Shown here one piece after another: positions 40,531 through 51,545 of a DNA stretch of 64,000 nucleotides (the stretch's first letter is position 1; every line of letters starts with the position of its first letter). A program made the translations under genes and the position numbers. Source of the stretch: Escherichia coli 042 (GTDB lineage: Bacteria > Pseudomonadota > Gammaproteobacteria > Enterobacterales > Enterobacteriaceae). Under the pieces are notes generated by a model. The model saw only the letters and a program-made list of their open reading frames with translations, ran no database searches and had not been told where the DNA came from. The stretch lies in assembly GCF_000027125.1 (NCBI RefSeq), contig NC_017626.1; one strand, given 5' to 3'.

Positions 40531-40593
40531 TTTCACTTAACGCATTGATTTAATTAAATGATTTGCACTACAAAAAGTGCCATAAATCGCAAA

Positions 40594-40617
40594 ATGACTA
40601 CACCAGTGACTACACCG
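40594..40617. repeat. Arm-type tandem repeat ATGACTACACC-AGTGACTACACCG near attL
   Basis: Same 23-24 nt tandem motif present at 51395-51418 near attR in same orientation. Confidence 0.55.
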
Positions 40618-40934
40618 TTCGGTGCACTGTATGAAACAACGTGGAACAAATAGACACAAGAAATATACAGGCGGGTCATCTTTCCAGGGGGAAGCGCGCT
40701 AATTCATGAGGGGCGTTAATGTTGATATGGGGATCCCCATAACGGGGCTACCGGATTTTTTTTCCGGTTAACTGTTAATCAGGCTGGTGGGCTTTACCTG
40801 TTTTGTAGGAGTGGTCATTATGACCATTCAGACAATGACCTTAATCAGAACTTTTCGCTAAAAAATGACGTTGGTCACGTCGTCCGGAAAGCACAAAATC
40901 CCGTCAATTTTTAATTAACGGTTAAACCGTCTTT

Positions 40935-40980
40935 TGTCACGGCGTGTCACTGGTTGTCACTCTCCGTCACGGTATGTCGC
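40935..40980. repeat. Five GTCAC-type half-sites phased at exactly 10 bp
   Basis: tGTCACggcgtGTCACtggttGTCACtctccGTCACggtatGTCGC; GTCAC is the reverse complement of the GTGAC of the arm repeats. Confidence 0.5.
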
Positions 40981-40986
40981 TACTCG

Positions 40987-41268
40987 TTAACGCCGTAACC
41001 GCTCCGGCTTCTTCCAGTGGTACGTAATTTTCTCCGTTTCCCGATACAGTGCCACGCGGCGATTGTAGGCCAGCATTTCAAGAACGCGGATCCGTATGTT
41101 GCGCATATCCACATCATTAAGCTGGATACCATCACGGCGCATCACCTCAGCAACCACACGCGCGTAATTTTCGGCGGTCACGCTGTCCGGCTGCGTGGCC
41201 TGTTCGTCATGCTGCTGGCTGATTCCGGTAACGCGGCGGATTAATCCCAGTAGTTCGGCTTCTGTCAT
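40987..41268 (-). CDS. Hypothetical island protein (93 aa from MTEAELLGLIRR)
   Basis: ORF; start chosen downstream of cos copy 1 with GGGGG SD-like upstream; longer ORF-track N-terminus would read through cos. Confidence 0.35.
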   Translation of the reverse strand: MTEAELLGLIRRVTGISQQHDEQATQPDSVTAENYARVVAEVMRRDGIQLNDVDMRNIRIRVLEMLAYNRRVALYRETEKITYHWKKPERLRR

Positions 41269-41301
41269 TGTGCCCCCATCGCTCTGATAGTCTGGTGTCG
41301 T

Positions 41302-41366
41302 CGGGTCCTTCCTGGAATTATGGCCCGTTACGGGGCGGCGACCTCGCGCGTTTTCACTATTTATGA
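41302..41366 (+). other. Lambda-type cos site copy 1 (cosN GGGCGGCGACCT at 41333-41344), followed by ACCGGACAT repeats at 41383-41479
   Basis: cgggtccttcc...gttacgGGGCGGCGACCTcgcgcgttttcactatttatgaaaatttt closely matches recalled lambda cosQ-cosN-left-end sequence. Confidence 0.7.
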
Positions 41367-41547
41367 AAATTTTTCGGGATCCATGTCCGGTTTCTCTGCA
41401 AGTTAACCATATGAAAAATATAAAAACATGCTTTCCATGAACCGGACATGCGCAAAAAACAGACACTAAAACCGGACATCGAACCAGTTAACCGAAAGTG
41501 TGCACAAATCACATGCATTGCTGCGAGTGATTAACAAGTTATCGGCT

Positions 41548-41982
41548 TTACTGTTCTGTATCGGCTGATTGCTCCATGCTGGCACGGCGAACGCTTATGG
41601 CATGACGCCACCCAGCCAGAAAGCCAGCCATTTTATTTCGTGCCTTGCTCACATCTTCCGGTGAATAGCCGTAAATCTGCAAACCTTCATCAAATCGATG
41701 TTCTGTTTCTTCACTGGAGTACTCGTCACGCTCAGATGAAAGCAGCCTGGCAAACATAATTTTTTCCAGCGCACTGGTTTCTACGTGATATCTGATGGTC
41801 TCAAGACGGCTTTTACCTGAAGACCAAAGCAATGTATGCCCGATGTGATAACCGCCAGACTTTCCGCGATCCGCATTAAGATACGGCATCCCCTGTTTGG
41901 TCCATGCGCGAATAGTGGTTCTGTTAACCTTGAAATGTTCAGCTATTTCCTGCTGACTTACAAAACAAGCTTTATCAATCAT
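41548..41982 (-). CDS. Nu1-like small terminase / packaging-specificity protein (144 aa)
   Basis: N-terminus VSQQEIAEHFKVNRTTIRAWTKQGMPYL parallels lambda Nu1 VNKKQLADIFGASIRTIQNWQEQGMPVL winged-HTH. Confidence 0.65.
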   Translation of the reverse strand: MIDKACFVSQQEIAEHFKVNRTTIRAWTKQGMPYLNADRGKSGGYHIGHTLLWSSGKSRLETIRYHVETSALEKIMFARLLSSERDEYSSEETEHRFDEGLQIYGYSPEDVSKARNKMAGFLAGWRHAISVRRASMEQSADTEQ

Positions 41983-42049
41983 AATGTTACCTTAACTGCA
42001 TGGTTAAATATTAATCAAGTGGTGGTGGTGTCACCTTCACGGAAAAACG

Positions 42050-42115
42050 TCATAAATAGCGAAAACCCGCGAGGTCGCCGCCCCGTAACGGGCCATAATT
42101 CCAGGAAGGACCCGT
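42050..42115 (-). other. Lambda-type cos site copy 2, inverted relative to copy 1 (cosN complement at 42072-42083), 88 bp upstream of terS
   Basis: Reverse complement reads ...gttacgGGGCGGCGACCTcgcgggttttcgctatttatga; 63/65 identity to copy 1. Confidence 0.7.
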
Positions 42116-42137
42116 AAAAAAGCCGGATTTCTCCGGC
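42115..42137 (-). terminator. Rho-independent terminator ending capsid operon
   Basis: Minus strand GCCGGAgaaaTCCGGC followed by T-tract. Confidence 0.6.
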
Positions 42138-42143
42138 CTTGTC

Positions 42144-42557
42144 TCAGATGTTTTTCAGTATGCGATCGATGTCGCCGTCATCGCCCTGGTTTCTGCCATC
42201 GTATGCCATGCCAGCTGATACGGCTTGCGGGCTGTGCATGTCCATAAAGTTTTCAAAGGCTGCGGTAAGTTCCGGCGCAACCTTCGGACGTTCCTGCTCT
42301 ATGGTCATGCTAAGGATGCTTTTAGCCGTACCAACATCGATACAAGGCACGTTTGCCATTGCACGCAACAGCGGCTGATAGTCTTTATGCTCATGAAGCG
42401 CCATAATCGCATCAGCGCGCGGCTTGTCCTGCTCTTCCAGTTTGTTTAGTTGATGTACGGCCTCATAGGTTGATAAACCTCTGTCAGCCATTGCCCGCGC
42501 TTCGACTTTAAATTTACTCGCCAGCGGTAGCGTCATGATGCTTTCATTCGTTGCCAT
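42144..42557 (-). CDS. Hypothetical island protein (137 aa), last gene of capsid operon
   Basis: ORF co-directional and tightly spaced after D-like gene. Confidence 0.45.
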   Translation of the reverse strand: MATNESIMTLPLASKFKVEARAMADRGLSTYEAVHQLNKLEEQDKPRADAIMALHEHKDYQPLLRAMANVPCIDVGTAKSILSMTIEQERPKVAPELTAAFENFMDMHSPQAVSAGMAYDGRNQGDDGDIDRILKNI

Positions 42558-42569
42558 CGTTCCCCCTGC

Positions 42570-42905
42570 TTATCGGGCCAGCGGCTGAACGGATACGCCG
42601 GAACCCGCAAAGGCGGCGCATTTTTTCGCATCGGTGTCGACGCTCTCAGGCCAGTTAACGGCGGCAATATTGAATATCCCCGTCTTGTAACACTGTGCTG
42701 ATTTCTGCTTTGACGTGTCCACAGGGTACGAGGTCAGATAAACAGCCTTGCCAGATTCCTGACCATCCCACGGCTTAAACTCGCCATTGTCTGCCAGCAT
42801 CAGCGGGGTAAATTCCTGAATAACGCCAGCATCAGCGGCAAAATGTACCAACGTCGTGGATACCTGCTGACTGCCTGCAAATAACTCAATGTATGGAGTG
42901 TCCAT
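42570..42905 (-). CDS. Head decoration protein, lambda gpD homolog (111 aa)
   Basis: TPLMLADNGEFKPWDG...YKTGIFNIAAVNWPESVDTDAKKCAAFAGSGVSV parallels lambda D TPLMLDTSSRKLVAWDG...[35 protein letters not shown]. Confidence 0.8.
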   Translation of the reverse strand: MDTPYIELFAGSQQVSTTLVHFAADAGVIQEFTPLMLADNGEFKPWDGQESGKAVYLTSYPVDTSKQKSAQCYKTGIFNIAAVNWPESVDTDAKKCAAFAGSGVSVQPLAR

Positions 42906-42917
42906 AGAATCCCCCCG

Positions 42918-43973
42918 TTAACCAATTTTGACGGTAACAAATTTGCGAATATCTGCCGGTACCGGCTGCGGTGCACTGTGTGTCTGCACGTACTCAATCG
43001 CCGGATCGCCGTCCTCAATCCAGTTTTTCGGGTAAAACATGTTTTGTGTTGCGCCCGTTCTTACCGCTTCCTGATCCATTATCGCACCATAGGCCACCAG
43101 CCCTTTATTGTTGGTGTTACCCAGGACCAGCAAATCAGGCTCAAGGAAATATTTTTCGGTACCATCGCTGTCAGTGTATTTGCCGGAATAGACGATAAGG
43201 GCCAGATCACCAAGATAGCCTTTAAAGCTCACCACTTCGCCCAGGTTTTTACAGGCCAGTTCGGCGGCGGATTCTGAACCACGGGAAAGATCGTACAGCT
43301 CACGGAATTTTTTAAAGCTGCGTAATGTGCGCCATACCTCAGCGCCCATAATCATGACGTTTGCGGGGCAACCAGCCTGATCAGCATAAAGCTCGATGTC
43401 ATAGATTGGGTCGTGCATGTCTTTATCCTGCTCGGACCATTTTTTACCCTTGGCCTGCTCTATGATGCAGTTTTCCGGTATTTTCCAGTCGATTTCATAG
43501 CGTTCTATGCCTTCGCCCTCAATGATGTTTTTTCCGGTCGTTACCGCATTCACCGCCAGCCATTCCACGCGTGCCTTAATGGCGTTTATCTGGCGGCGCA
43601 TGTTGCCAGTAATCAGGCGCATACGGCGATAGGTAGGGTCGTTAAGCTGTGCCGGATCTTCTCCAGCCATGCGCATGATGGTTTTCGTTGGATCGATTTC
43701 GTGCTTTGGCTTCATGTAGCCAGGTTTGATTGTGCTGGTTTCGTACCCTTTATCGCGCTGAACCTGGCTACCCACCATAGGCGAACAAAACGCCGACATG
43801 GTGACTTCTTCAATGTCCAGGGTATCCAGCATGATGTTTTGCGTGCTGAATGTCGCCACGTTCGGGAAAAACAGCGTGGTAAACAGAGGGCTGAATTTAA
43901 AATCCGCAATATCCCCGCGATTCAGGTACATGAAAAGCTGGTTAGTGTTAAGTGCCGTTGCTTTGCCTGCCAT
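42918..43973 (-). CDS. Major capsid protein, lambda gpE homolog (351 aa)
   Basis: KPGYMKPKHEIDP, DPTYRRMRLITGNMR, VSFKGYLGDLALIVYSGKY, YPKNWIEDGDPA align along recalled lambda E. Confidence 0.85.
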   Translation of the reverse strand: MAGKATALNTNQLFMYLNRGDIADFKFSPLFTTLFFPNVATFSTQNIMLDTLDIEEVTMSAFCSPMVGSQVQRDKGYETSTIKPGYMKPKHEIDPTKTIMRMAGEDPAQLNDPTYRRMRLITGNMRRQINAIKARVEWLAVNAVTTGKNIIEGEGIERYEIDWKIPENCIIEQAKGKKWSEQDKDMHDPIYDIELYADQAGCPANVMIMGAEVWRTLRSFKKFRELYDLSRGSESAAELACKNLGEVVSFKGYLGDLALIVYSGKYTDSDGTEKYFLEPDLLVLGNTNNKGLVAYGAIMDQEAVRTGATQNMFYPKNWIEDGDPAIEYVQTHSAPQPVPADIRKFVTVKIG

Positions 43974-44179
43974 TATTCACCCCCATAATTTTTATGCATC
44001 CCAAGCGCCGCAAGTAAATAAGAGCGTACAAGTGAACCTATCGACGGCTCCGGCGTCATCAGCGGATCCAGTCCAGCCGCAACGCCAGCTTCATAGTTTT
44101 TTTTGTGGCGCTGCTTGAGCACCTCCACGATTTCGGGGCTTATGTACACCGAAACACCGCCTTTTTTCTCTTCAGCCAT
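43973..44179 (-). CDS. Small protein upstream of capsid gene, possible ribbon-helix-helix fold (68 aa)
   Basis: MAEEKKGGVSVYISPEIVEVLKQRHKK; GAGGA SD; stop overlaps capsid start. Confidence 0.35.
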   Translation of the reverse strand: MAEEKKGGVSVYISPEIVEVLKQRHKKNYEAGVAAGLDPLMTPEPSIGSLVRSYLLAALGMHKNYGGE

Positions 44180-44208
44180 AGTAAGAAATTCCTCTTCGAC
44201 TAAAAAAA

Positions 44209-44236
44209 TCATAACTGGATGTTTATCCAGTTATGA
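44209..44236. promoter_or_regulatory. Perfect 12-bp inverted repeat TCATAACTGGAT-gttt-ATCCAGTTATGA in capsid-operon promoter region
   Basis: Seen directly; 30 bp upstream of operon start; second palindrome ATTGCATtttATGCAAT at 44248-44264. Confidence 0.5.
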
Positions 44237-44388
44237 TTATAATCAGAATTGCATTTTATGCAATGATATTGAGTTATGTTGCAAATTATGAAATGATTAT
44301 CCCGATCACGAACGCCAGTGCATCCAAAAACCTCATATGCAAAAGCCCGATAAGAACCCTCTGACCTTATCGGGCTTTTTTTGGGCGC

Positions 44389-44410
44389 AAAAAAGCCGGA
44401 TTGCTCCGGC
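44389..44410 (-). terminator. Rho-independent terminator after 74-aa gene
   Basis: Same GCCGGA-loop-TCCGGC module plus T-tract; preceded by second hairpin 44345-44382. Confidence 0.55.
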
Positions 44411-44430
44411 TATGTGTGCTGTGTGCTGGC

Positions 44431-44655
44431 TCAGTCTCTGATCTCTTTCAGAAATTCTATCAATGCATCTATCTGTTCAGGATTTACCGCCAGCATTTCA
44501 CCGGATAGAGCACATCTCACAAAACCATGCTGATCCTTTTCAATCAGTGCGCCCGTCTCCAGGAATGCGCGGTAATCATTGATGCTCATCGTCTCCATGT
44601 TGTCAGCATGGTATTTATCACGCTGTTTTAATATCTCATCAAATTTCATCGGCAT
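44431..44655 (-). CDS. Hypothetical island protein (74 aa)
   Basis: ORF bracketed by terminators. Confidence 0.4.
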   Translation of the reverse strand: MPMKFDEILKQRDKYHADNMETMSINDYRAFLETGALIEKDQHGFVRCALSGEMLAVNPEQIDALIEFLKEIRD

Positions 44656-44751
44656 TGTTTTTTTCCTCTGTTGTGTCTGTTTGTTTCAGATAGTAACTAT
44701 GCCTGACCGTGACGAAAACCCGGTAATGCGCCATACCGTTTCAACTGGTGC

Positions 44752-44774
44752 AAAAAAAGCCGGATTTCTCCGGC
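44752..44774 (-). terminator. Rho-independent terminator after PerC-like gene
   Basis: GCCGGAgaaaTCCGGC plus T7 on minus strand. Confidence 0.6.
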
Positions 44775-44781
44775 TGTTTGA

Positions 44782-45054
44782 TTAGCTGTCCTGGTAATTG
44801 CGCCATATTTCATCACCAGCACCATCTATACCCATTTCGGCATAAGTGCGATCGACTGCCTTTTTCAGGTCTCCGAAATTATCCGGCGGCTCCGGTGCCC
44901 TCTGTGCCTTCCTTGAACATTCCAGCCGTCGCATCGTGATGTGATGCCGTTCCTTGTCTGTCTCCACCAGCTGCATGACTTCACCCCATCGCGCCGCCGC
45001 CCTCCGGTAAAAGCCTTTCGCCTCCAGTTCCTCCGCTATGCGGTCATGTACCAT
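44782..45054 (-). CDS. PerC/Pch-family transcriptional regulator (90 aa)
   Basis: AEELEAKGFYRRAAARWGEVM resembles recalled Pch/PerC signature (…LEAQGLWRRAAARW…); GAGGGGG SD before ATG. Confidence 0.55.
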   Translation of the reverse strand: MVHDRIAEELEAKGFYRRAAARWGEVMQLVETDKERHHITMRRLECSRKAQRAPEPPDNFGDLKKAVDRTYAEMGIDGAGDEIWRNYQDS

Positions 45055-45064
45055 CGTCACCCCC

Positions 45065-45475
45065 TCAGAACGAAATATCATCACCGTAAGGGTCATCGCC
45101 TCCCGCTGGTGGCTGATTACCCTGTGTGCCTGTGGTTTTGCGTCTGTTCCCGCCTGGACGTGCCGCGCGGGCACTGATTACGCTGTCTGCGATAACCTGC
45201 CAGCCCTGCCGCGTTTCTCCGTTCTGTCCGGTCCACTGGCTTACCTGCATCGTGCCGGATACGCTGGCAACATCGCCTTTTTGATGTTTAGCCAGGAAGT
45301 CGGCCTGTTTGCCAAATGCGATGACCGATAACCATAACGTCGCCTGTCCGTCCTGTGCCTGGCTGCATGGCAAAGATACCGCCATACGCGCCAGCGTCAT
45401 CGGTGTGCCCTTGCTGGTCTGTTTTACCTGCGGGTCGTCCACCAGCCGCCCGTAAGCGGCTATCTGTGCCGTCAT
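45065..45475 (-). CDS. ssb: Single-stranded DNA-binding protein (SSB)
   Basis: OB-fold region and Gly/Pro-rich tail ending DDPYGDDISF (cf. E. coli SSB C-terminal DDDIPF). Confidence 0.8.
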   Translation of the reverse strand: MTAQIAAYGRLVDDPQVKQTSKGTPMTLARMAVSLPCSQAQDGQATLWLSVIAFGKQADFLAKHQKGDVASVSGTMQVSQWTGQNGETRQGWQVIADSVISARAARPGGNRRKTTGTQGNQPPAGGDDPYGDDISF

Positions 45476-45723
45476 AATTCCACCTCTCCGGTTTTAACGT
45501 TGATGGTTGTTACCTGTTCCGCTTCGGCAATCTCCCGTTCTGTCAGCGTGGCAAAGTTTGCCGCCGCCGTGGTCATGAATGCGCTTATCAGGTCGGGATG
45601 TTCCTTCGCGTATCCTTCCCGCGTGTGGCGGTCTATCGTTCTGATTGCCACCTTTAAGGTGTGCTCAGTCATGTCTAACGCTTTATATTTTGGCTCTGTT
45701 CTGTCTCTGCGTTTTTGGGTCAT
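45472..45723 (-). CDS. Hypothetical small protein between ori and ssb
   Basis: ORF; start uncertain (45723 or 45672). Confidence 0.3.
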   Translation of the reverse strand: MTQKRRDRTEPKYKALDMTEHTLKVAIRTIDRHTREGYAKEHPDLISAFMTTAAANFATLTEREIAEAEQVTTINVKTGEVEL

Positions 45724-45734
45724 TTCTCGCAACC

Positions 45735-45926
45735 TCTCACTTTTTCGCCTCACTTTTTCAAGCGTCTCACTTCGTCGCAGTTGGGATTTTCGGTTTTTCT
45801 ATGTGTGTGTTTCATAAGTATTTTTTTACCCCTCACTTTTGAGGATGTATACAGGTCGAAAAGTGAGGGAGAGCGGGCTAATTTTGGCCCTCTTTCTATC
45901 CCCCTCGCTTTTGCTCCTCACTTTTA
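45735..45926. repeat. Iteron array (CTCACTTTT, at least 6 copies, both orientations) with AT-rich spacer: putative island replication origin
   Basis: Copies at 45735, 45748, 45766, 45832, 45858 (inverted), 45916; directly 3' of pri-rep gene. Confidence 0.55.
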
Positions 45927-47324
45927 TAGCGGCGCTACATCATCCCCATCGATACGAATAACCCCATCTTTTTCCAGCTTGTACAGCCAGCGCCGGAAGT
46001 TTTTCATTTCATACCCCAGCTTTTTCATGTCATCACGTAACAGCGGGATCGTGCACTTGTCGCCGTTCTGTGTGCGTGAACGGATGCACCCCCATAGCGC
46101 GGTATGGTTTTCCGTCTTGTTCCCTGCCTCCTCGATGCGCTCCAGTTCAACAGGAGGGCGCGGATCATCCACCACCACCAGCGACGTGATTAATTCACCG
46201 TCAGCGTCGGTAAAAAGCTCCACCACGCGTAAGTCATATGCGGCTTCTTTGAGTTCCTCCGCGTCCTTCATTTTGGTGCATGAGATAACCAGCGCTTCGC
46301 TTCCTGCGTCCTCCCTGCGTATCCGGTATTCAGCATCCAGCGAAGCACGAAATGCACTGGAACCGCGCGCGCCTTTCGTCTCATCCTTGCCGGAATGGTG
46401 AACCACCAGCACCGTGGCCCCTGTGCGTCGTTTCAGTTCGTCACAACCACGGATAAACGCCCCCATATCACGGGAATCATTTTCATCATTCCCACCAAAG
46501 CAACGCGCCAGCGTATCCAGAATAATCATGCGTACAGGTTTACCCGTTTCCCGCTCCACCTGACGGGCAGCGATAACCATTTCATCAACATCAAGCGGGG
46601 CAGCCGGAAAGATGGGGCGGTTTACCAGATACAGATTTTTCACCTGCTCATCGTGCACAACCTCCCAGGCTTTTACACGACGCGGAACACCTATACCGCC
46701 TTCACCAACCACATAGAGAACCGCACCATGTGCAACCCTGCGGCCTCCCCACTGGCGACCAGTGGCAACATGGCACGCCCACGATCCAGCAAGGAATGAT
46801 TTATAGGACCCGCTAGCCCCGTATATGCTGCATAGCGATACCGCCGGAATAATCCCCTTAACCACGTAATCCAGTTGCGTGTCGTATCCGGTAGATCCAA
46901 CGCTCATCGGTAGCGTGGTTTTTCGCTGGTGTTTTTTTTCTTCCGCCGGCTCTTTCCCGCGCACCCGTTCCAGGTATTCGCGCCAGTTCTCCCGCATATG
47001 GCTGTGCATCCCTTCGGGGTAATAATTCGCATCAGTTACACCCGCCGCCGCCAGCTTGTGCGCAATGGCATTAATATTTGATGGCCTGATGTGGCCTGCC
47101 TTGTACAGCCGGACACAATAGCGCCCCTCGTCGATGATTCTCAGGTCTGCCAGTTCATCCAGTTGATCATCAGCCAGCACAACGGGAGGCACATTATCGC
47201 CAGCCAGTCGCCCGTCCTGTTCCTGCCACTGTTTCGCATGTGCCCAGGCATCACTACCCGCAAAAATAATGACTTCGGTCATCTTGTCGTAAGGCTGTTT
47301 TTTTAAGTTCGGTGCGCTTTTCAT
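45924..47324 (-). CDS. Primase/replicase-type AAA ATPase (RepA/AAA_25-like, 466 aa)
   Basis: Walker A GASGSYKS, Walker B MIILDTLARCFGG, VVHHSGKDETKGARGSSAF sensor region. Confidence 0.8.
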   Translation of the reverse strand: MKSAPNLKKQPYDKMTEVIIFAGSDAWAHAKQWQEQDGRLAGDNVPPVVLADDQLDELADLRIIDEGRYCVRLYKAGHIRPSNINAIAHKLAAAGVTDANYYPEGMHSHMRENWREYLERVRGKEPAEEKKHQRKTTLPMSVGSTGYDTQLDYVVKGIIPAVSLCSIYGASGSYKSFLAGSWACHVATGRQWGGRRVAHGAVLYVVGEGGIGVPRRVKAWEVVHDEQVKNLYLVNRPIFPAAPLDVDEMVIAARQVERETGKPVRMIILDTLARCFGGNDENDSRDMGAFIRGCDELKRRTGATVLVVHHSGKDETKGARGSSAFRASLDAEYRIRREDAGSEALVISCTKMKDAEELKEAAYDLRVVELFTDADGELITSLVVVDDPRPPVELERIEEAGNKTENHTALWGCIRSRTQNGDKCTIPLLRDDMKKLGYEMKNFRRWLYKLEKDGVIRIDGDDVAPL

Positions 47325-47620
47325 TTCTTGCCCCTGAATCCGTTAACCATGGTTTTCAGCTTCTGGATGTTTGCCCGTGCCCTGGCGTTGCTGGTGGGCA
47401 CGTTATGCGGCGCGGTCTGTACCAGAGAAAAATCACGCCGGAACTGATAAACAGGCATCACGCAATCATATTCGTAACCTTCACGGCGGTAGGTTACGCG
47501 CCGTTCTTCCACGTCCTTAATCATTACCGTGCCGCCGTACTGGTCGCGGTAAATATCACCGCGCGTAAATTTAGGGTGAGTGTTGCCACTGGCAGTTAAG
47601 CCAGAATATTTAAGTTTCAT
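47321..47620 (-). CDS. Hypothetical island protein (99 aa)
   Basis: ORF in tight operon; stop overlaps pri-rep start. Confidence 0.45.
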   Translation of the reverse strand: MKLKYSGLTASGNTHPKFTRGDIYRDQYGGTVMIKDVEERRVTYRREGYEYDCVMPVYQFRRDFSLVQTAPHNVPTSNARARANIQKLKTMVNGFRGKK

Positions 47621-47625
47621 TATTT

Positions 47626-47859
47626 TTATTCTCCGGTGTGCTGTTCTTTATATCTGTCGTGCAATAGATCTATTTCTTGCAGTTCCATTATTACAGGCTC
47701 AAGAAGCGTTATTAATGCTGTGGCAATTCTTGATTTTTGTTTGTCGCGTTCATTGTCGCCAAGTGTTTCAAGCCATATGCGCAATATTTCCATCATGTTT
47801 TCACTGTGAGAAAGTGCAAGAAATGCGCGGTCTATTGTTTGGTGGTAAATATCACGCAT
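47626..47859 (-). CDS. Hypothetical island protein (77 aa)
   Basis: ORF in operon. Confidence 0.4.
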   Translation of the reverse strand: MRDIYHQTIDRAFLALSHSENMMEILRIWLETLGDNERDKQKSRIATALITLLEPVIMELQEIDLLHDRYKEQHTGE

Positions 47860-48319
47860 GGCTTACATCCTCAGGAAATTTTCTTCTATAACGCGCCTCT
47901 GCCACATATTCCGCATAATCGGCGGCGATATTCAGTACATCAAGCCCCGTTGATTTATATTCTCTCGTGGAAAGTAAGAAAAAAGCCGCTCTAATAAGTT
48001 CTGGCATTGACGAAAGCGCATCAGCCGCATCATCAGGAACGCCGGAAAATTCCTGTTTCAGGGAATTAAAACGATCATCACGCATAACCCCCCCCCCATT
48101 TTCACAATCAGCAATCAGGATAGCTTTGGCCTCATTCAGCGCCGTATCAGCACTAAATTGCATGACAGCCAGTGAGTGAGGAACGAAAGCACCGGCATAT
48201 TCTGTTTCGCTGGTGGCGTGCTTATGTGCCCTGTCCGCGATAACAGAAATATCAATCAGCGCGTGCATCAGCGTTTTGATGGCTTCGGCGGCTGCGTCCG
48301 GTGTGGTTTTATTGTGCAT
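47852..48319 (-). CDS. Hypothetical island protein (155 aa)
   Basis: ORF in operon. Confidence 0.45.
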   Translation of the reverse strand: MHNKTTPDAAAEAIKTLMHALIDISVIADRAHKHATSETEYAGAFVPHSLAVMQFSADTALNEAKAILIADCENGGGVMRDDRFNSLKQEFSGVPDDAADALSSMPELIRAAFFLLSTREYKSTGLDVLNIAADYAEYVAEARYRRKFPEDVSHA

Positions 48320-48521
48320 AAAGCATCCCCTGAATATTCGTGTTAATCATTCCGGCACGTTTTGTGATTTCCTGTAATGATTCCCTTGTGGCGACAATTG
48401 CTTCATCTGGTAAGTGGTAATTACACACCACGCGACCTTTATCCACATTGACCAGTAGCTGCCCTGTGAATTTCTCACGAAACTGAATGCGGTTAAGGTC
48501 AGTAAGTGACAGATTAATCAT
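48309..48521 (-). CDS. Hypothetical island protein (70 aa)
   Basis: AGGAGG immediately upstream of ATG at 48521. Confidence 0.45.
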   Translation of the reverse strand: MINLSLTDLNRIQFREKFTGQLLVNVDKGRVVCNYHLPDEAIVATRESLQEITKRAGMINTNIQGMLYAQ

Positions 48522-48711
48522 GGCGCACCTCCTGACGAATACGGGCGGCAAATACAGCAACACAACCGGACGGGCAACGGTTACGCGCTTCGCGTTCCGT
48601 CCAGGCGGTTACGTGGATGATTTGAGATTCTCCGGCACTCAGTGCCAGAAAACGCCACACAAAGGCCGTTTGTGTGTGTACAAGGTGTGGTATATGATTT
48701 ACAGCAACCAT
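48514..48711 (-). CDS. Hypothetical island protein (65 aa), first gene of leftward operon
   Basis: AGGAG SD upstream of ATG at 48711. Confidence 0.4.
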   Translation of the reverse strand: MVAVNHIPHLVHTQTAFVWRFLALSAGESQIIHVTAWTEREARNRCPSGCVAVFAARIRQEVRHD

Positions 48712-48804
48712 AACGGCTCCTAGTTTACGTTGTTGGTTAGAAGCCCTGCGAGTGGTAACGACACTTGCGGGGCTTTGTCTTTTCATCGATTACCTTGATA
48801 AAGG

Positions 48805-48884
48805 TGTCAGCCACTATATTAGTAACGGGTGTCAGCCACGTCAATAGTGTTTTTCCGTTTTCTTGTGTGTATACTGTCAGCCAC
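48805..48884. promoter_or_regulatory. Three direct repeats TGTCAGCCAC in divergent promoter region, with TATACT -10-like element
   Basis: Repeats at 48805-48814, 48830-48839, 48875-48884. Confidence 0.5.
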
Positions 48885-48905
48885 CTAATAACGAGGAAAT
48901 CAGAT

Positions 48906-49085
48906 ATGGCAACAAAAGCAGTTAATGCAAAATCCAAAAAGCTTGAGGCTCGAGTACCACACGCAATAGCTGATGCTGTAGAAAATTTAAAGGAAGATGG
49001 CGAAAGTACAGGGCAATTTATCGTTTCGGCACTTGAAGGCGAGATCAAACGCCGCCAGCGCCGCAAGGCCAAAGAATCAGAATAA
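48906..49085 (+). CDS. Ribbon-helix-helix (CopG/Arc-like) putative repressor (59 aa)
   Basis: KKLEARVPHAIADAVENLKEDGESTGQFIVSALEGEIKR fits beta-strand/helix/helix RHH pattern; divergent from main operon. Confidence 0.5.
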   Translation: MATKAVNAKSKKLEARVPHAIADAVENLKEDGESTGQFIVSALEGEIKRRQRRKAKESE

Positions 49086-49127
49086 TCACTATCAGCGCCG
49101 TGGTGTGAGGTATTACGGCGCATTGCT

Positions 49128-49316
49128 ATGCAGGACAACACAATGACCGATAAAGAATTGACCAAAACATTATCACCGGCACGGAAAAGACGGCGCAGAA
49201 AGATAGAGCATGAATCAGAAAGATTCGCACCATGTGCTTTTGCCCTTGAGCAATTCCTTAAAGAGTACAGGGAAAAGCGCTCATTGCAGGTATGGCAACG
49301 AACTGAACCAGACTGA
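49128..49316 (+). CDS. Hypothetical small basic protein (62 aa or shorter from MTDKEL)
   Basis: ORF followed by hairpin plus T7 at ~49410-49440. Confidence 0.3.
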   Translation: MQDNTMTDKELTKTLSPARKRRRRKIEHESERFAPCAFALEQFLKEYREKRSLQVWQRTEPD

Positions 49317-49585
49317 TTGCATTGCCCACCAGCCTGATAGCGGCTATCATCCCCGTGCTTATGTTTGGGATCACACACACAAACGGCGCAGCGGGTTATC
49401 TGTTCAGAAAGGCGGCTCCATTTCGGGGCCGCTTTTTTTATACCTGAAAAACCCCAATTTTGTTGTTTTTCAGTTTCACCAGGGCGAACGAATCCCCGCC
49501 CACGTTCTGGCGTATATTCAATCTTCATGGTTATAGCTCTGTGTTCAGATGATTGATGTGTGGCGGCTGCGTGCCGCCAGCGTGA

Positions 49586-49774
49586 TTAATGAACTGCCTT
49601 GCAGCTATCCTTCCAGGCCAGAACCTCGGATAAAGACCAGCCAACGGAACGACCGCCAAGTTTACGACGTGATGGGAATTGTCCGGCCTTTTCCAGGCGG
49701 TAGCGACACGTACGGCTAAGGCCGGTTAGTTTTTCGCATTCTTTTTCACGTATAAACCGATCAGTGCTTAACAC
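49586..49774 (-). CDS. alpA: AlpA-family excision/transcription regulator
   Basis: 62 aa MLSTDRFIREKECEKLTGLSRTCRYRLEKAGQFPSRRKLGGRSVGWSLSEVLAW. Confidence 0.8.
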   Translation of the reverse strand: MLSTDRFIREKECEKLTGLSRTCRYRLEKAGQFPSRRKLGGRSVGWSLSEVLAWKDSCKAVH

Positions 49775-50048
49775 TATTGCCCCCCCTTTCGTTTCTTAAA
49801 GAGTCATCAGGTGTCTTATTGTGTCGTATTGTTCCCGCTAGAGTGATGAATGGCAAATATTGAGGATGTATGATTTACAGAAAATGAAACAGTAAGAATA
49901 AAATCTTTTAAATTCATGTTAATACAAAGGCATAAAATATTGTTTCATGCCTTTTTTCTCGCTCTTTAAAGAGTGATTCGCTAGTGTATAAAAAACCAGT
50001 GACACATTAAAAATCAGCCACTTATAAATCTGTATGCTTTTTCGCCTC

Positions 50049-50123
50049 TTGTTCGTGGTTGTTCCACATTGTTGCTCATTGTTGCACGTTGTATCTGTTC
50101 GCATATACAGTATGCGCATACTG
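50049..50123. promoter_or_regulatory. Five TTGTTSC-like repeats at ~10-bp spacing plus 16-bp perfect palindrome CAGTATGCGCATACTG (50108-50123) in int-alpA intergenic region
   Basis: Seen directly. Confidence 0.4.
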
Positions 50124-50140
50124 AAAAAACACGAAAAAAA

Positions 50141-51370
50141 TTATTTTCTTCTGGCTACTGGTAGCGTGGTTACGTTTTCATGTGTTCCCGCCAGTATCCC
50201 TAACCGCTCCGTCCACATATCCAGCGCATTGCGTTTAGCATCCAGATAACGGGAATGATTATAAACTCGCTGCATTCCTGGCATCTGGTGGCCTGTAAGC
50301 TGCTCCACGACATGCGGATCAACGCCTAAATCGTTCAGCATGGTTGTAAAGGTGCGCCGGATGTCATGCAGTGACCAGTGAGGATGATTAAGCCTCCTGT
50401 GCGCTAATCTTCCATACTGCGATACGCTGGCCTCCTGTTTCACTTCCCCCAGCAATAAGCCCGTGTGCCTGTTCTGCTCCACCAGCTGCGTGACGAACGG
50501 CAGGATCGCTTCCGGTATGGGCCGGAATATTGCGACCTTCGTTTTGCTGTGCTCCTTCGGAACGGTCCATAGCATTTCCGTAAAATCCCACTCCCCGATC
50601 TCCGATAACCTCAGTTCTACCGTTCTGGCTCCGAAGACAATCAGGAGGCGGATTAACGCGACGTAGTAAGGGGAGAATATTTTTTTGTCCAGTGCCTGCA
50701 ATAATTCGCCAAGTTCTTTGTTACTTAAGACACGTTCGCTTATATCCGGTTTTTTCCCAACGTCCGCCACGTTCAGATCGTCCAGAACGTTGCTGATTGC
50801 ATAGCGCCGCCTACGGCAGAACTTAAGCGCCTGTTTGCACGCCTGTAGCACGAATCCGGCAGTAACAGGCGTTCGCTTTGCCACCTGGTCAAAACAGGCC
50901 AGCCAGTGCCGTAGCTCGCATTTATCCAGCGGCATAGCACCAATCTGCTGTATTACGTGATTATTAAGTCGCCTTTTCAGGGCGATATAATCCACGCGGT
51001 TTTCCTTTACGTAATACTCAAGCCAGTAGGTGAGCGCATCGCCAACCGTTACCGGCTTTAACGCTTCCTGTACGGTGTAATTAAGCTCATGACGTGGATT
51101 TTTCCCCTCTGCCAGCCATGCGCGACACTGGGCGGCTTTTTCCCTGGCTGATTTCAGGCTCAGATCAGGATAACTTCCCAGCTTAATGCGTTCGGGTCGT
51201 GTCTCCCTTCCCGTTCCGGCCCTGTATGTGAAATACCAGGTCAATTTCCCTGATGTTAAATATTTCACGCTCAGGTTTCCGCCATCACTATAAAACGTGT
51301 TTTTCTCCGCTGGCTTACCATGAAGTTTCCTTAGCAAGGTATCGCTCAGTTTGTTCATTGCTCTGCTCAC
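50141..51370 (-). CDS. int: P4-type tyrosine integrase (start GTG 51370 or ATG 51358)
   Basis: 409-aa ORF; catalytic region ...HDIRRTFTTMLNDLGVDPHVVEQLTGHQMPGMQRVYNHSRY; adjacent to attR. Confidence 0.9.
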   Translation of the reverse strand: MSRAMNKLSDTLLRKLHGKPAEKNTFYSDGGNLSVKYLTSGKLTWYFTYRAGTGRETRPERIKLGSYPDLSLKSAREKAAQCRAWLAEGKNPRHELNYTVQEALKPVTVGDALTYWLEYYVKENRVDYIALKRRLNNHVIQQIGAMPLDKCELRHWLACFDQVAKRTPVTAGFVLQACKQALKFCRRRRYAISNVLDDLNVADVGKKPDISERVLSNKELGELLQALDKKIFSPYYVALIRLLIVFGARTVELRLSEIGEWDFTEMLWTVPKEHSKTKVAIFRPIPEAILPFVTQLVEQNRHTGLLLGEVKQEASVSQYGRLAHRRLNHPHWSLHDIRRTFTTMLNDLGVDPHVVEQLTGHQMPGMQRVYNHSRYLDAKRNALDMWTERLGILAGTHENVTTLPVARRK

Positions 51371-51394
51371 GTTTTACCCCCTCTTTACGAAAAA

Positions 51395-51418
51395 GTGACT
51401 ACACCAGTGACTACACCG
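51395..51418. repeat. Arm-type tandem repeat GTGACTACACC-AGTGACTACACCG near attR
   Basis: Matches 40594-40617. Confidence 0.55.
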
Positions 51419-51545
51419 ATCGTTGCACAAAGGGCTACAACGTGAAACAAGCTGGAACAAGGAAAATCACAAATCTGTTGATAATCAAAAACATAATGCA
51501 CAGCCTGAAACATTATGAAACAGCAAAAAACACCAAATGATAAAA

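Follow-up and report, generated by a model that had tools for sequence, protein, structure and literature searches.

A Reused Terminator-Like Hairpin Marks the Ends of Putative Transcription Units in a Phage-Inducible Chromosomal Island of Escherichia coli 042

The 64-kb stretch of the Escherichia coli 042 chromosome analyzed here (NC_017626.1; the window) contains a phage-inducible chromosomal island (PICI) in which three near-identical copies of a short stem-loop, designated T1, T2, and T3, each follow the end of a gene on the minus strand. It is likely that a single portable Rho-independent terminator, confined to one lineage of phage satellites, is present here in three copies, that it divides the island into separately controlled units, and that its copies owe their near-identity to descent and recombination. 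The lineage would consist of PICIs of the EcCICFT073 type together with related capsid-forming islands (cf-PICIs), within which shared ancestry and recombinational exchange, rather than convergence, would keep the copies alike.

According to the proposed mechanism, RNA polymerase leaving perC, the gene for a 74-aa protein, or the capsid operon would transcribe AGCCGGA-GNAA-UCCGGCU followed by U6-7. The GNRA-capped hairpin would then form inside the exit channel, and the transcript, held by a weak rU:dA hybrid, would be released. The order along the island is int, alpA, rgdR, pri-rep, ssb, perC, T3, the 74-aa gene, T2, a gpE-type capsid operon, T1, cos1, rpp, and cos2, and the modules would divide it into four parts: a replication and regulation block extending from alpA to perC, an optional cassette holding the 74-aa gene, the gpE/gpD capsid operon, and a packaging block composed of cos1 and rpp. 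An earlier note on this DNA had proposed a reused modular terminator at these positions, a proposal that is supported by sequence and comparative tests of form, position, transcription units, and promoter-like elements.

Three Copies of One Module

The pattern AAAAAAGCCGGAKTKCTCCGGC is matched at three places in the window, each with 0 mismatches (42116-42137, 44389-44410, and 44753-44774), while shuffled sequence gives an expectation of 0.00 matches. A degenerate form of the same motif, AAAAAAGCCGGA(T)T(T/G)CTCCGGC, likewise occurs at 3 places only, and the 16-nt palindromic core, GCCGGANNNNTCCGGC, is found at the 3 sites alone against 0.01 expected. Read on the gene (minus) strand, every copy has the sequence AGCCGGA-G(A/C)AA-UCCGGCU followed by U6-7. 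Specifically, T1 (42116..42140, minus strand) reads AAGGCCGGAGAAAUCCGGC-UUUUUU and folds as AAGGCCGGA-GAAA-UCCGGCUU with 6 U altogether in its tract, its predicted energy being -13.6 kcal/mol. T2 (44389..44411, minus strand) reads AGCCGGAGCAAUCCGGC-UUUUUU and folds as AGCCGGA-GCAA-UCCGGCU, again with 6 U altogether, at -12.5 kcal/mol, and T3 (44752..44775, minus strand) reads AGCCGGAGAAAUCCGGC-UUUUUUU and folds as AGCCGGA-GAAA-UCCGGCU with 7 U altogether, at -12.6 kcal/mol.

Each copy stands just past a gene end on the minus strand, as the earlier note had observed. The open reading frames (ORFs) in question encode the 137-aa protein (42144-42557), the 74-aa protein (44431-44655), and the PerC-family protein (44782-45054/45174), and their stop codons precede T1, T2, and T3 by 6, 20, and 6-7 nt, respectively. 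The three sites given in that note stand, and the A7 run of the third does begin at 44752; position 42115 is a T, so the start assigned to the first was one base early. Its description of the modules as near-identical holds, whereas its reference to an identical hairpin is too strong, since the loop is GCAA in T2 and GAAA in T1 and T3, and the base of the stem is G in T1 and A in T2 and T3. In all, 21-22 of 22 positions are shared among the three copies, loop included. The likeness is confined to about 24-30 nt, beyond which the flanking DNA cannot be aligned.

Form of an Intrinsic Terminator

As judged from sequence, T1, T2, and T3 have the textbook form of an intrinsic terminator. The stems comprise 7-9 bp with at least 5 G-C pairs and are closed by a 4-nt GNRA loop; predicted hairpin energies range from -12.5 to -13.6 kcal/mol. 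Minus-strand z-scores against shuffles lie between -3.3 and -4.5, and the 46-nt contexts outperform 200 of 200 shuffled sequences. Directly 3' of the stem is a U-tract (U6 in T1, U6 in T2, and U7 in T3), and each module is co-oriented with the last gene of its unit, 5-20 nt past the stop codon. On the opposite strand the loops would read UUUC or UUGC, such that a GNRA loop exists on the gene strand only. Because the plus-strand 3' flanks are not U-rich, save for a weak GUUUGAUU after T3, the modules are predicted to be essentially one-directional. A consensus terminator scan of the window listed both T2 and T3 on the minus strand.

Like the modules, the canonical Rho-independent terminators known from E. 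coli and from its phages have a short G+C stem, a stable tetraloop, at least 5-6 U on the 3' side, and a position just past stop codons. The trp attenuator, the trpA terminator, and lambda tR2 are familiar reference terminators; reference sequences folded in the same manner gave a similar predicted stability, -14 to -16 kcal/mol against about -12 to -14 kcal/mol for the T-modules. The ordinary terminators of neighboring genes are usually unrelated in sequence. Here, in contrast, one near-invariant hairpin serves up to four gene ends within one lineage of mobile elements.

Conservation in Related Islands

Relatives of the island were assembled from 158 IMG/VR loci, found via the 137-aa and PerC proteins, six E. 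coli loci, and EcCICFT073, and the counts by preceding gene given next refer to distinct sequences. Each related locus contains 1 to 3 T-modules. The hairpin follows the 137-aa gene in 47 of 47 cases, with a gap of 5-6 nt and a GAAA loop, and is present after perC in 35 of 43 and after the 74-aa gene in 12 of 14. It follows ssb solely where ssb ends its block (12 cases), as opposed to the 34 cases in which perC is directly next, and in a single instance, a locus without the 137-aa gene, it follows gpD. Never was it seen in the relatives after the gene that encodes the major capsid protein (MCP), the small first ORF of the capsid operon (p79), pri-rep, or the 93-aa gene. EcCICFT073 carries two of these modules, one between perC and the capsid operon with its upstream hairpin hp2 (described below) and one between the 137-aa gene and cosQ. 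The hairpin is thus found after whichever gene comes last, its position depending on where a unit ends and not on which gene ends it.

Across these relatives the loop is GAAA in 173 copies, GCAA in 103, GUAA in 21, GGAA in 2, and GAAG in 4; variation is therefore almost restricted to the free N of GNRA, while the stem hardly changes over more than 300 copies. A U-tract of 5-9 residues accompanies 48 of 48 distinct variants, on the downstream side alone.

Invariance of this kind, with only the N of GNRA free to change, would also suit sequence-specific recognition, and a second explanation holds that the terminators are conditional: a helper or island factor would bind the GNRA hairpin, as lambda N does at boxB, or modify RNA polymerase, such that after induction one AlpA-driven transcript passes T3, T2, and T1 and expresses the capsid genes along with rpp. 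Induction of EcCICFT073 works through alpA, and helper-phage induction, excision, and transfer of that island have been demonstrated (PMC6092414). The island is transcribed one way, three strong predicted stops lie between alpA and rpp, and one relative (L130) has a 5-nt GAAAA loop that is boxB-like. The boxB element of lambda nut sites resembles the T-module as a small G+C stem with a GNRA-type loop on a phage-related transcript, but differs in its 5-bp stem and pentaloop, its need for boxA, and the lack of a U-tract common to nut-type hairpins. Moreover, no boxA lies beside any T-module, the sole exact CGCTCTTA being located some 1.9 kb upstream of T1, inside a coding sequence; independent promoter-like elements follow both T2 and T1; the island proteins include no candidate RNA-binding antiterminator; and recent common descent explains the invariance equally well. 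Conditional termination is accordingly regarded as decidedly unlikely, and the identification of the modules as nut sites was rejected, given the U-tract and the lack of a nearby boxA.

Distribution and Possible Origins

Matches to a 35-nt T3 module were found in 795 of 5426 complete E. coli genomes, at 1-6 places per genome, and K-12-like genomes were not among them. Among the matches listed, those that are annotated are in island contexts, beside PerC genes; the shorter ones bear no annotation. In a collection of 50,697 phage records no match covered at least 80% of the module, and a helper-phage origin, for which this collection was the source consulted, was set aside. A search of Rfam returned no family anywhere in the island at E up to 1. 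The hairpin sequence was not found in the searchable literature, and the publications on PICIs that were consulted, including PMC6092414 and PMC6739421, leave terminators unmentioned.

Repetitive extragenic palindromic (REP) elements, and the bacterial interspersed mosaic elements (BIMEs) that they form, are likewise intergenic palindromes of 3' regions. The outer stem of REP also begins GCCGGAT...ATCCGGC. They differ from the T-module in that REP is about 35 nt long with a conserved interior and has hundreds of copies in the core genome, whereas the T-module spans 16-18 nt and bears a U-tract. Length, together with the presence of 3 copies in 64 kb and matches in only the 795 of 5426 genomes, excludes a REP element.

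Several observations weigh against the reading of T1, T2, and T3 as dedicated terminators of this lineage. Firstly, the consensus terminator scan of the window did not list T1, the tail of which (UUUUUUAC) is soon broken by cosQ. Secondly, although stem pairing is retained in 98.8% of cells, there are 0 compensatory pairs and shuffles return the observed value, covariation being uninformative here because the stem hardly varies. Thirdly, no promoter of at least 9/12 is present between T3 and the start codon of the 74-aa gene, where the best candidate found by eye is a weak TTTTCG-17-TACTAT (7/12), and the 74-aa gene may therefore need read-through of T3. Lastly, A5-GCCGGA-N4-TCCGGC is common in unrelated bacteria of many phyla (at least 120 stretches, with a loop-degenerate pattern); a generic shape so widespread means that the stem sequence itself is not special.

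The last of these observations also favors a different origin, in which three generic terminators arose independently and converged. Against this stand the occurrence of 3 copies within 2.7 kb where 0.01 would be expected, the identity of 21-22 of 22 positions down to the loop, the concentration of the annotated matches listed from the 795 genomes in this one island family, and the presence of the hairpin at homologous junctions in about 150 related islands. Convergence is effectively refuted. The evidence as a whole supports, at the level of sequence, the interpretation of the three sites as terminators related by descent.

T2 and T3 at Module Junctions

The architectures of the related islands are combinatorial, with a T-module at each junction. 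The arrangement of the window island (ssb-perC, T, p74, T, gpE-type capsid operon, T, cos, where p74 is the 74-aa gene) is found alongside the same arrangement without p74 and the same without perC, and in a further architecture ssb-perC, T, with or without a following p74 and T, is joined to the HK97-type capsid/portal/protease module of cf-PICIs, which is unrelated to the gpE-type. The 74-aa gene is bracketed by the hairpin, and the capsid operon closed by it, in all architectures seen, in keeping with the claim of the earlier note that these units are set apart.

Megablast matches to the window stop exactly at T2 (44381/44390) and T3 (44754). In a local comparison of all relatives against the island, 80 of 807 internal ends of high-scoring segment pairs fell at T2 and 55 at T3, the remaining peaks (87 and 58) coinciding with the edge of each cos site on its cosB side. 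Homology does not break at T1, which belongs with cosQ and cosN to a single conserved block; the break there occurs at cosB. Where perC, a single T-module, and the capsid operon (beginning with p79) are joined directly, the junction combines the upstream flank of T3 with the downstream flank of T2 as an exact hybrid, which would be the expected product of crossover between T repeats or, equally, of insertion of p74 and its T-module. Flanked by T repeats, the 74-aa gene with its T behaves as a cassette that some islands have and others lack, among gpE-type PICIs and HK97-type cf-PICIs alike. Going beyond the earlier note, then, the comparisons identify T2 and T3 as mosaic recombination junctions, and T1 as a neighbor of cosQ. 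T2 and T3 would serve as joints between modules that are otherwise unrelated (gpE-type or HK97-type capsid genes, perC present or lacking, p74 present or lacking).

These data raise the possibility that the repeat is chiefly a DNA linker, providing 22-24 bp of identity for cassette exchange by RecA or helper Red between co-resident satellites, with termination secondary or ancestral. The clustering of breakpoints at T2 and T3, the p74 cassette with its precise hybrid junctions, the joining by one hairpin of replication blocks to unrelated gpE-type and HK97-type capsid modules, and the invariance of a stem free of compensatory change all speak for such a role. A linker alone, however, leaves unexplained the one-sided U-tract, the restriction of the loop to GNAA, and the distance of 5-20 nt from stop codons, and it does not account for T1, at which homology does not break. 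In addition, 22-24 bp lies at the lower limit for efficient RecA recombination, which counts against recombination as the primary role. As a primary explanation the linker is possible and yet appreciably less probable than not; as an additional property of a terminator, with which it is compatible rather than exclusive, it is well supported. From the sequences we infer termination, its efficiency, and recombination inside the 22-24 bp repeat alike.

The 74-aa gene also invites comparison with phage morons. Morons, and the sequences that form boundaries or linkers in mosaic lambdoid phages, were reportedly described by Hendrix and colleagues and by Clark et al. in 2001. As with a moron, the gene is small, optional, and supplied with its own terminator, its insertion together with T falls between conserved neighbors, and short conserved sequences mark the mosaic junctions. 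Morons normally carry their own promoter. The 74-aa gene, in contrast, has no convincing promoter, and the junction is the putative terminator itself, on both sides of the cassette.

T1 and the Packaging Region

Read along the minus strand, the U-tract of T1 leads without a gap into cosQ (ACGGGTCC) and then cosN (GGGCGGCGACCT). The cos1 site (42037..42115, minus strand) comprises cosQ at 42108-42115, cosN at 42072-42083, and the first part of a cosB specific to PICIs, while cos2 (41302..41379, plus strand) is an inverted copy of cos1 with no T-module beside it. Between cos1 (42037-42114) and cos2 (41302-41379), which flank rpp, 78 nt are 91% complementary, and nhmmer detected both copies (1.8e-21). 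The names cos1 and cos2 and the pairing of the sites have already been described for EcCICFT073 (PMC6092414). The rpp gene (redirecting phage packaging; 41548..41982, minus strand) encodes a 144-aa winged-helix homolog of RppC (PDB 6HLK; E 4.5e-31) that is identical to the EcCICFT073 protein at 142 of 144 residues.

Homology to the cos sites of lambdoid phages begins exactly at the end of the hairpin, and none of the helper and lambdoid phage cos sites compared has the hairpin. In helper phages, late transcription must cross cos. In the island, T1 would halt capsid-operon transcripts at cosQ, such that cos1 and rpp would not be transcribed from upstream. A promoter-like site, GTGACA-16-AATATT, is present after T1 in the cosB region, and because T1 is predicted to stop transcripts before they reach rpp, expression of rpp is most likely driven from this site.

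In related islands of the L001/L185 type, a cos-like sequence lies directly 3' of the terminator that follows ssb (z of 3.9 and 6.6 against shuffles; nhmmer E 0.045), with the variant cosN ACGGGGCGGGAG(C)GGCGCGG. Since the cos after T1 in L185 bears nearly the same cosN variant, the cos-like copy may be an alternative cos type, suited to another helper, and not a dead copy. This arrangement suggests that a unit of T and cos was duplicated in the past. A vestigial cos beside T3 or T2 of the window island was sought and rejected, global alignment giving z of about 2.5 and 2.3 against shuffles, respectively, and nhmmer returning nothing.

The adjacency of T1 to cosQ bears on one further explanation, namely that AGCCGGA-N4-TCCGGCT is not an RNA element at all and instead is bound as DNA by a protein dimer, for instance PerC, AlpA, Rpp, or terminase, or else belongs to a packaging signal by cosQ. 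A perfect 7-bp inverted repeat tolerant of central change would fit such a site, as would the lack of covariation and the fact that a second T-module, in islands of the L001/L185 type, also precedes a cos-like sequence. Yet the spacer varies at 1 of its 4 positions, with GNAA kept on the gene strand; a T-run accompanies the downstream side in every case and never the upstream side; T2, T3, and the cf-PICI copies are not located by cos, while the hairpin is missing from cos2 and from every helper-phage cos site; and placement follows stop codons. A DNA site is for these reasons considered highly improbable.

Control Region of the Capsid Operon

Just downstream of T2, in tandem with it, is a second hairpin, hp2 (44345..44382; hairpin 44345-44375), of the form GCCCGATAAG-loop-CTTATCGGGC. 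Since its gene strand carries U4 and the opposite strand T7, hp2 looks like a two-way terminator, and a 101-nt fold of the region has a predicted energy of -39.9 kcal/mol. In the relatives its stem is conserved, its loop is variable, and it is always at the 5' side of the gpE-type capsid operon.

A candidate promoter for the operon follows (44236..44263, minus strand), with TTGCAT as the -35 element (44263-44258), a 16-nt spacer, and TATAAT as the -10 element (44241-44236); TTGCAT-16-TATAAT is conserved across 54 distinct upstream regions. The -35 element sits within the inverted repeat ATTGCA-N5-TGCAAT, and three motifs of the TTGCA type occur in 44207-44265. Overlapping the -10 element and the +1 position, in the leader of the operon, is a perfect palindrome, the arms of which are 14 bp long and are succeeded by T5-7 (44207..44238, minus strand; -17.7 kcal/mol); it could be an operator or a leader attenuator. 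The TTGCA repeats and this palindrome look like operator or attenuator elements for a regulator. Taken together, hp2, the TTGCA motifs, the conserved promoter, and the leader palindrome support an independently regulated capsid operon, which would have its own conserved promoter and palindromic operator-like sites. The palindromic GATTATAATC (44235-44244) reads TATAAT on both strands; more speculatively, together with hp2 it could delimit a plus-strand RNA about 130 nt long with its end at 44382.

The Host Island and Its Genes

The island (40591..51467, about 10.8 kb, minus strand) is a Gram-negative PICI of the EcCICFT073 type. It lies between imperfect direct repeats (40591-40666 and 51392-51467), with mdtJ and tqsA as its chromosomal neighbors, and its genes are read leftward from the minus strand. 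As in other PICIs, int, alpA, and pri-rep are present and genes point in one direction, within a length of roughly 10-15 kb bounded by attachment (att) repeats and devoid of lysis or tail genes; its packaging functions comprise lambda-type cosQ and cosN, a cosB of its own, and Rpp.

The replication and regulation end of the island, all on the minus strand, includes the tyrosine integrase gene int (50141-51370), the gene for the AlpA-type regulator (alpA, 49586-49774), and a DUF4222 gene, rgdR (47321-47620), the 99-aa product of which has RGD at residues 20-22. The position of this RGD fits RgdR (ECs1581), an island-encoded activator of the type III secretion system of the enterocyte effacement locus (LEE) in O157:H7 (PMC3378721). 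Between alpA and rgdR, an ORF of 263 aa on the minus strand (48737-49528) is probably spurious, as related islands instead annotate a small YlcI/YnfO-family gene on the plus strand (48765-49085), the only gene against the direction of the island; a strong plus-strand hairpin is present at 48740-48776. Next is pri-rep (45924-47324), encoding a RepA-type primase/helicase. Just downstream of it, at 45714-45925, TTTT.C.CCTCACTTTT occurs three times with a spacing of 83-85 bp, probably as iterons of the island replication origin, and this region of iteron-like repeats is another cluster of homology breakpoints. The block closed by T3 ends with ssb (45065-45475; PF00436, 1.7e-16) and, as its last gene, the PerC-family gene (44782-45054 core; PF06069, 1.2e-42). 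Over T3 itself, RefSeq annotates in relatives either a "hypothetical protein" of 129 nt or a frameshifted pseudogene labeled "trigger factor" (L006 6655-6783; L003 4298-4413; equivalent to about 44700-44830 of the window), and these calls look like annotation artefacts.

The 74-aa gene (44431..44655, minus strand; PHROG 1957), the optional cassette between T3 and T2, is followed by the four ORFs of the capsid operon (42144..44212, minus strand). These encode, in order, a 79/68-aa product (43973-44212), the gpE-family major capsid protein (42918-43973; PF03864, 5.5e-50), the gpD-family decoration protein (42570-42905; PF02924, 5.1e-18), and the 137-aa protein (42144-42557), which by a weak match resembles the C-terminus of a head protease/scaffold and has homologs in E. 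coli alone. Searches of Pfam, NCBIfam, and PDB with the 74-, 79-, 137-, and 93-aa proteins gave no informative match beyond function-unknown PHROG families. The segment from the capsid genes to perC is 99.7% identical to an O157:H7 island located between phoQ and roxA.

EcCICFT073 is the prototype of the Gram-negative PICIs (Fillol-Salom 2018, PMC6092414; 2019, PMC6739421), and the window island agrees with it in gene order, capsid and decoration genes, Rpp, the inverted pair of cos sites, and the placing of T-modules behind both perC and the 137-aa gene. The two differ in that EcCICFT073 occupies the phoQ/roxA site and the window island mdtJ/tqsA, and in that the latter adds the 74-aa cassette and with it a third T-module.

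Implications for Satellite Biology

The element described here is of an ordinary kind and entails no new mechanism, while its tidy, family-wide use appears not to have been described previously. What results is a putative transcription-unit map for widespread phage satellites of E. coli, including the rgdR-bearing O157:H7 island and EcCICFT073, according to which control of the capsid operon, of the 74-aa gene, and of rpp would in each case be separate from that of the AlpA-driven early block. The map also provides a sequence marker for module borders, AGCCGGAGNAATCCGGCTTTTT, that could aid annotation where RefSeq errs over T3, help to trace the exchange of modules between PICIs and cf-PICIs, and assist in engineering PICI-based delivery vehicles.

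A bolder and rather unlikely extension would make the invariant hairpin a lineage-specific joint, at once the crossover point for the exchange of morphogenesis and accessory cassettes between PICIs and cf-PICIs and a handle for coordinated, factor-dependent read-through once a helper has induced the island, with T1 shielding cos1 and rpp from transcription that begins upstream. Were this extension true, a 22-nt terminator would organize both the modularity and the timing of these satellites.

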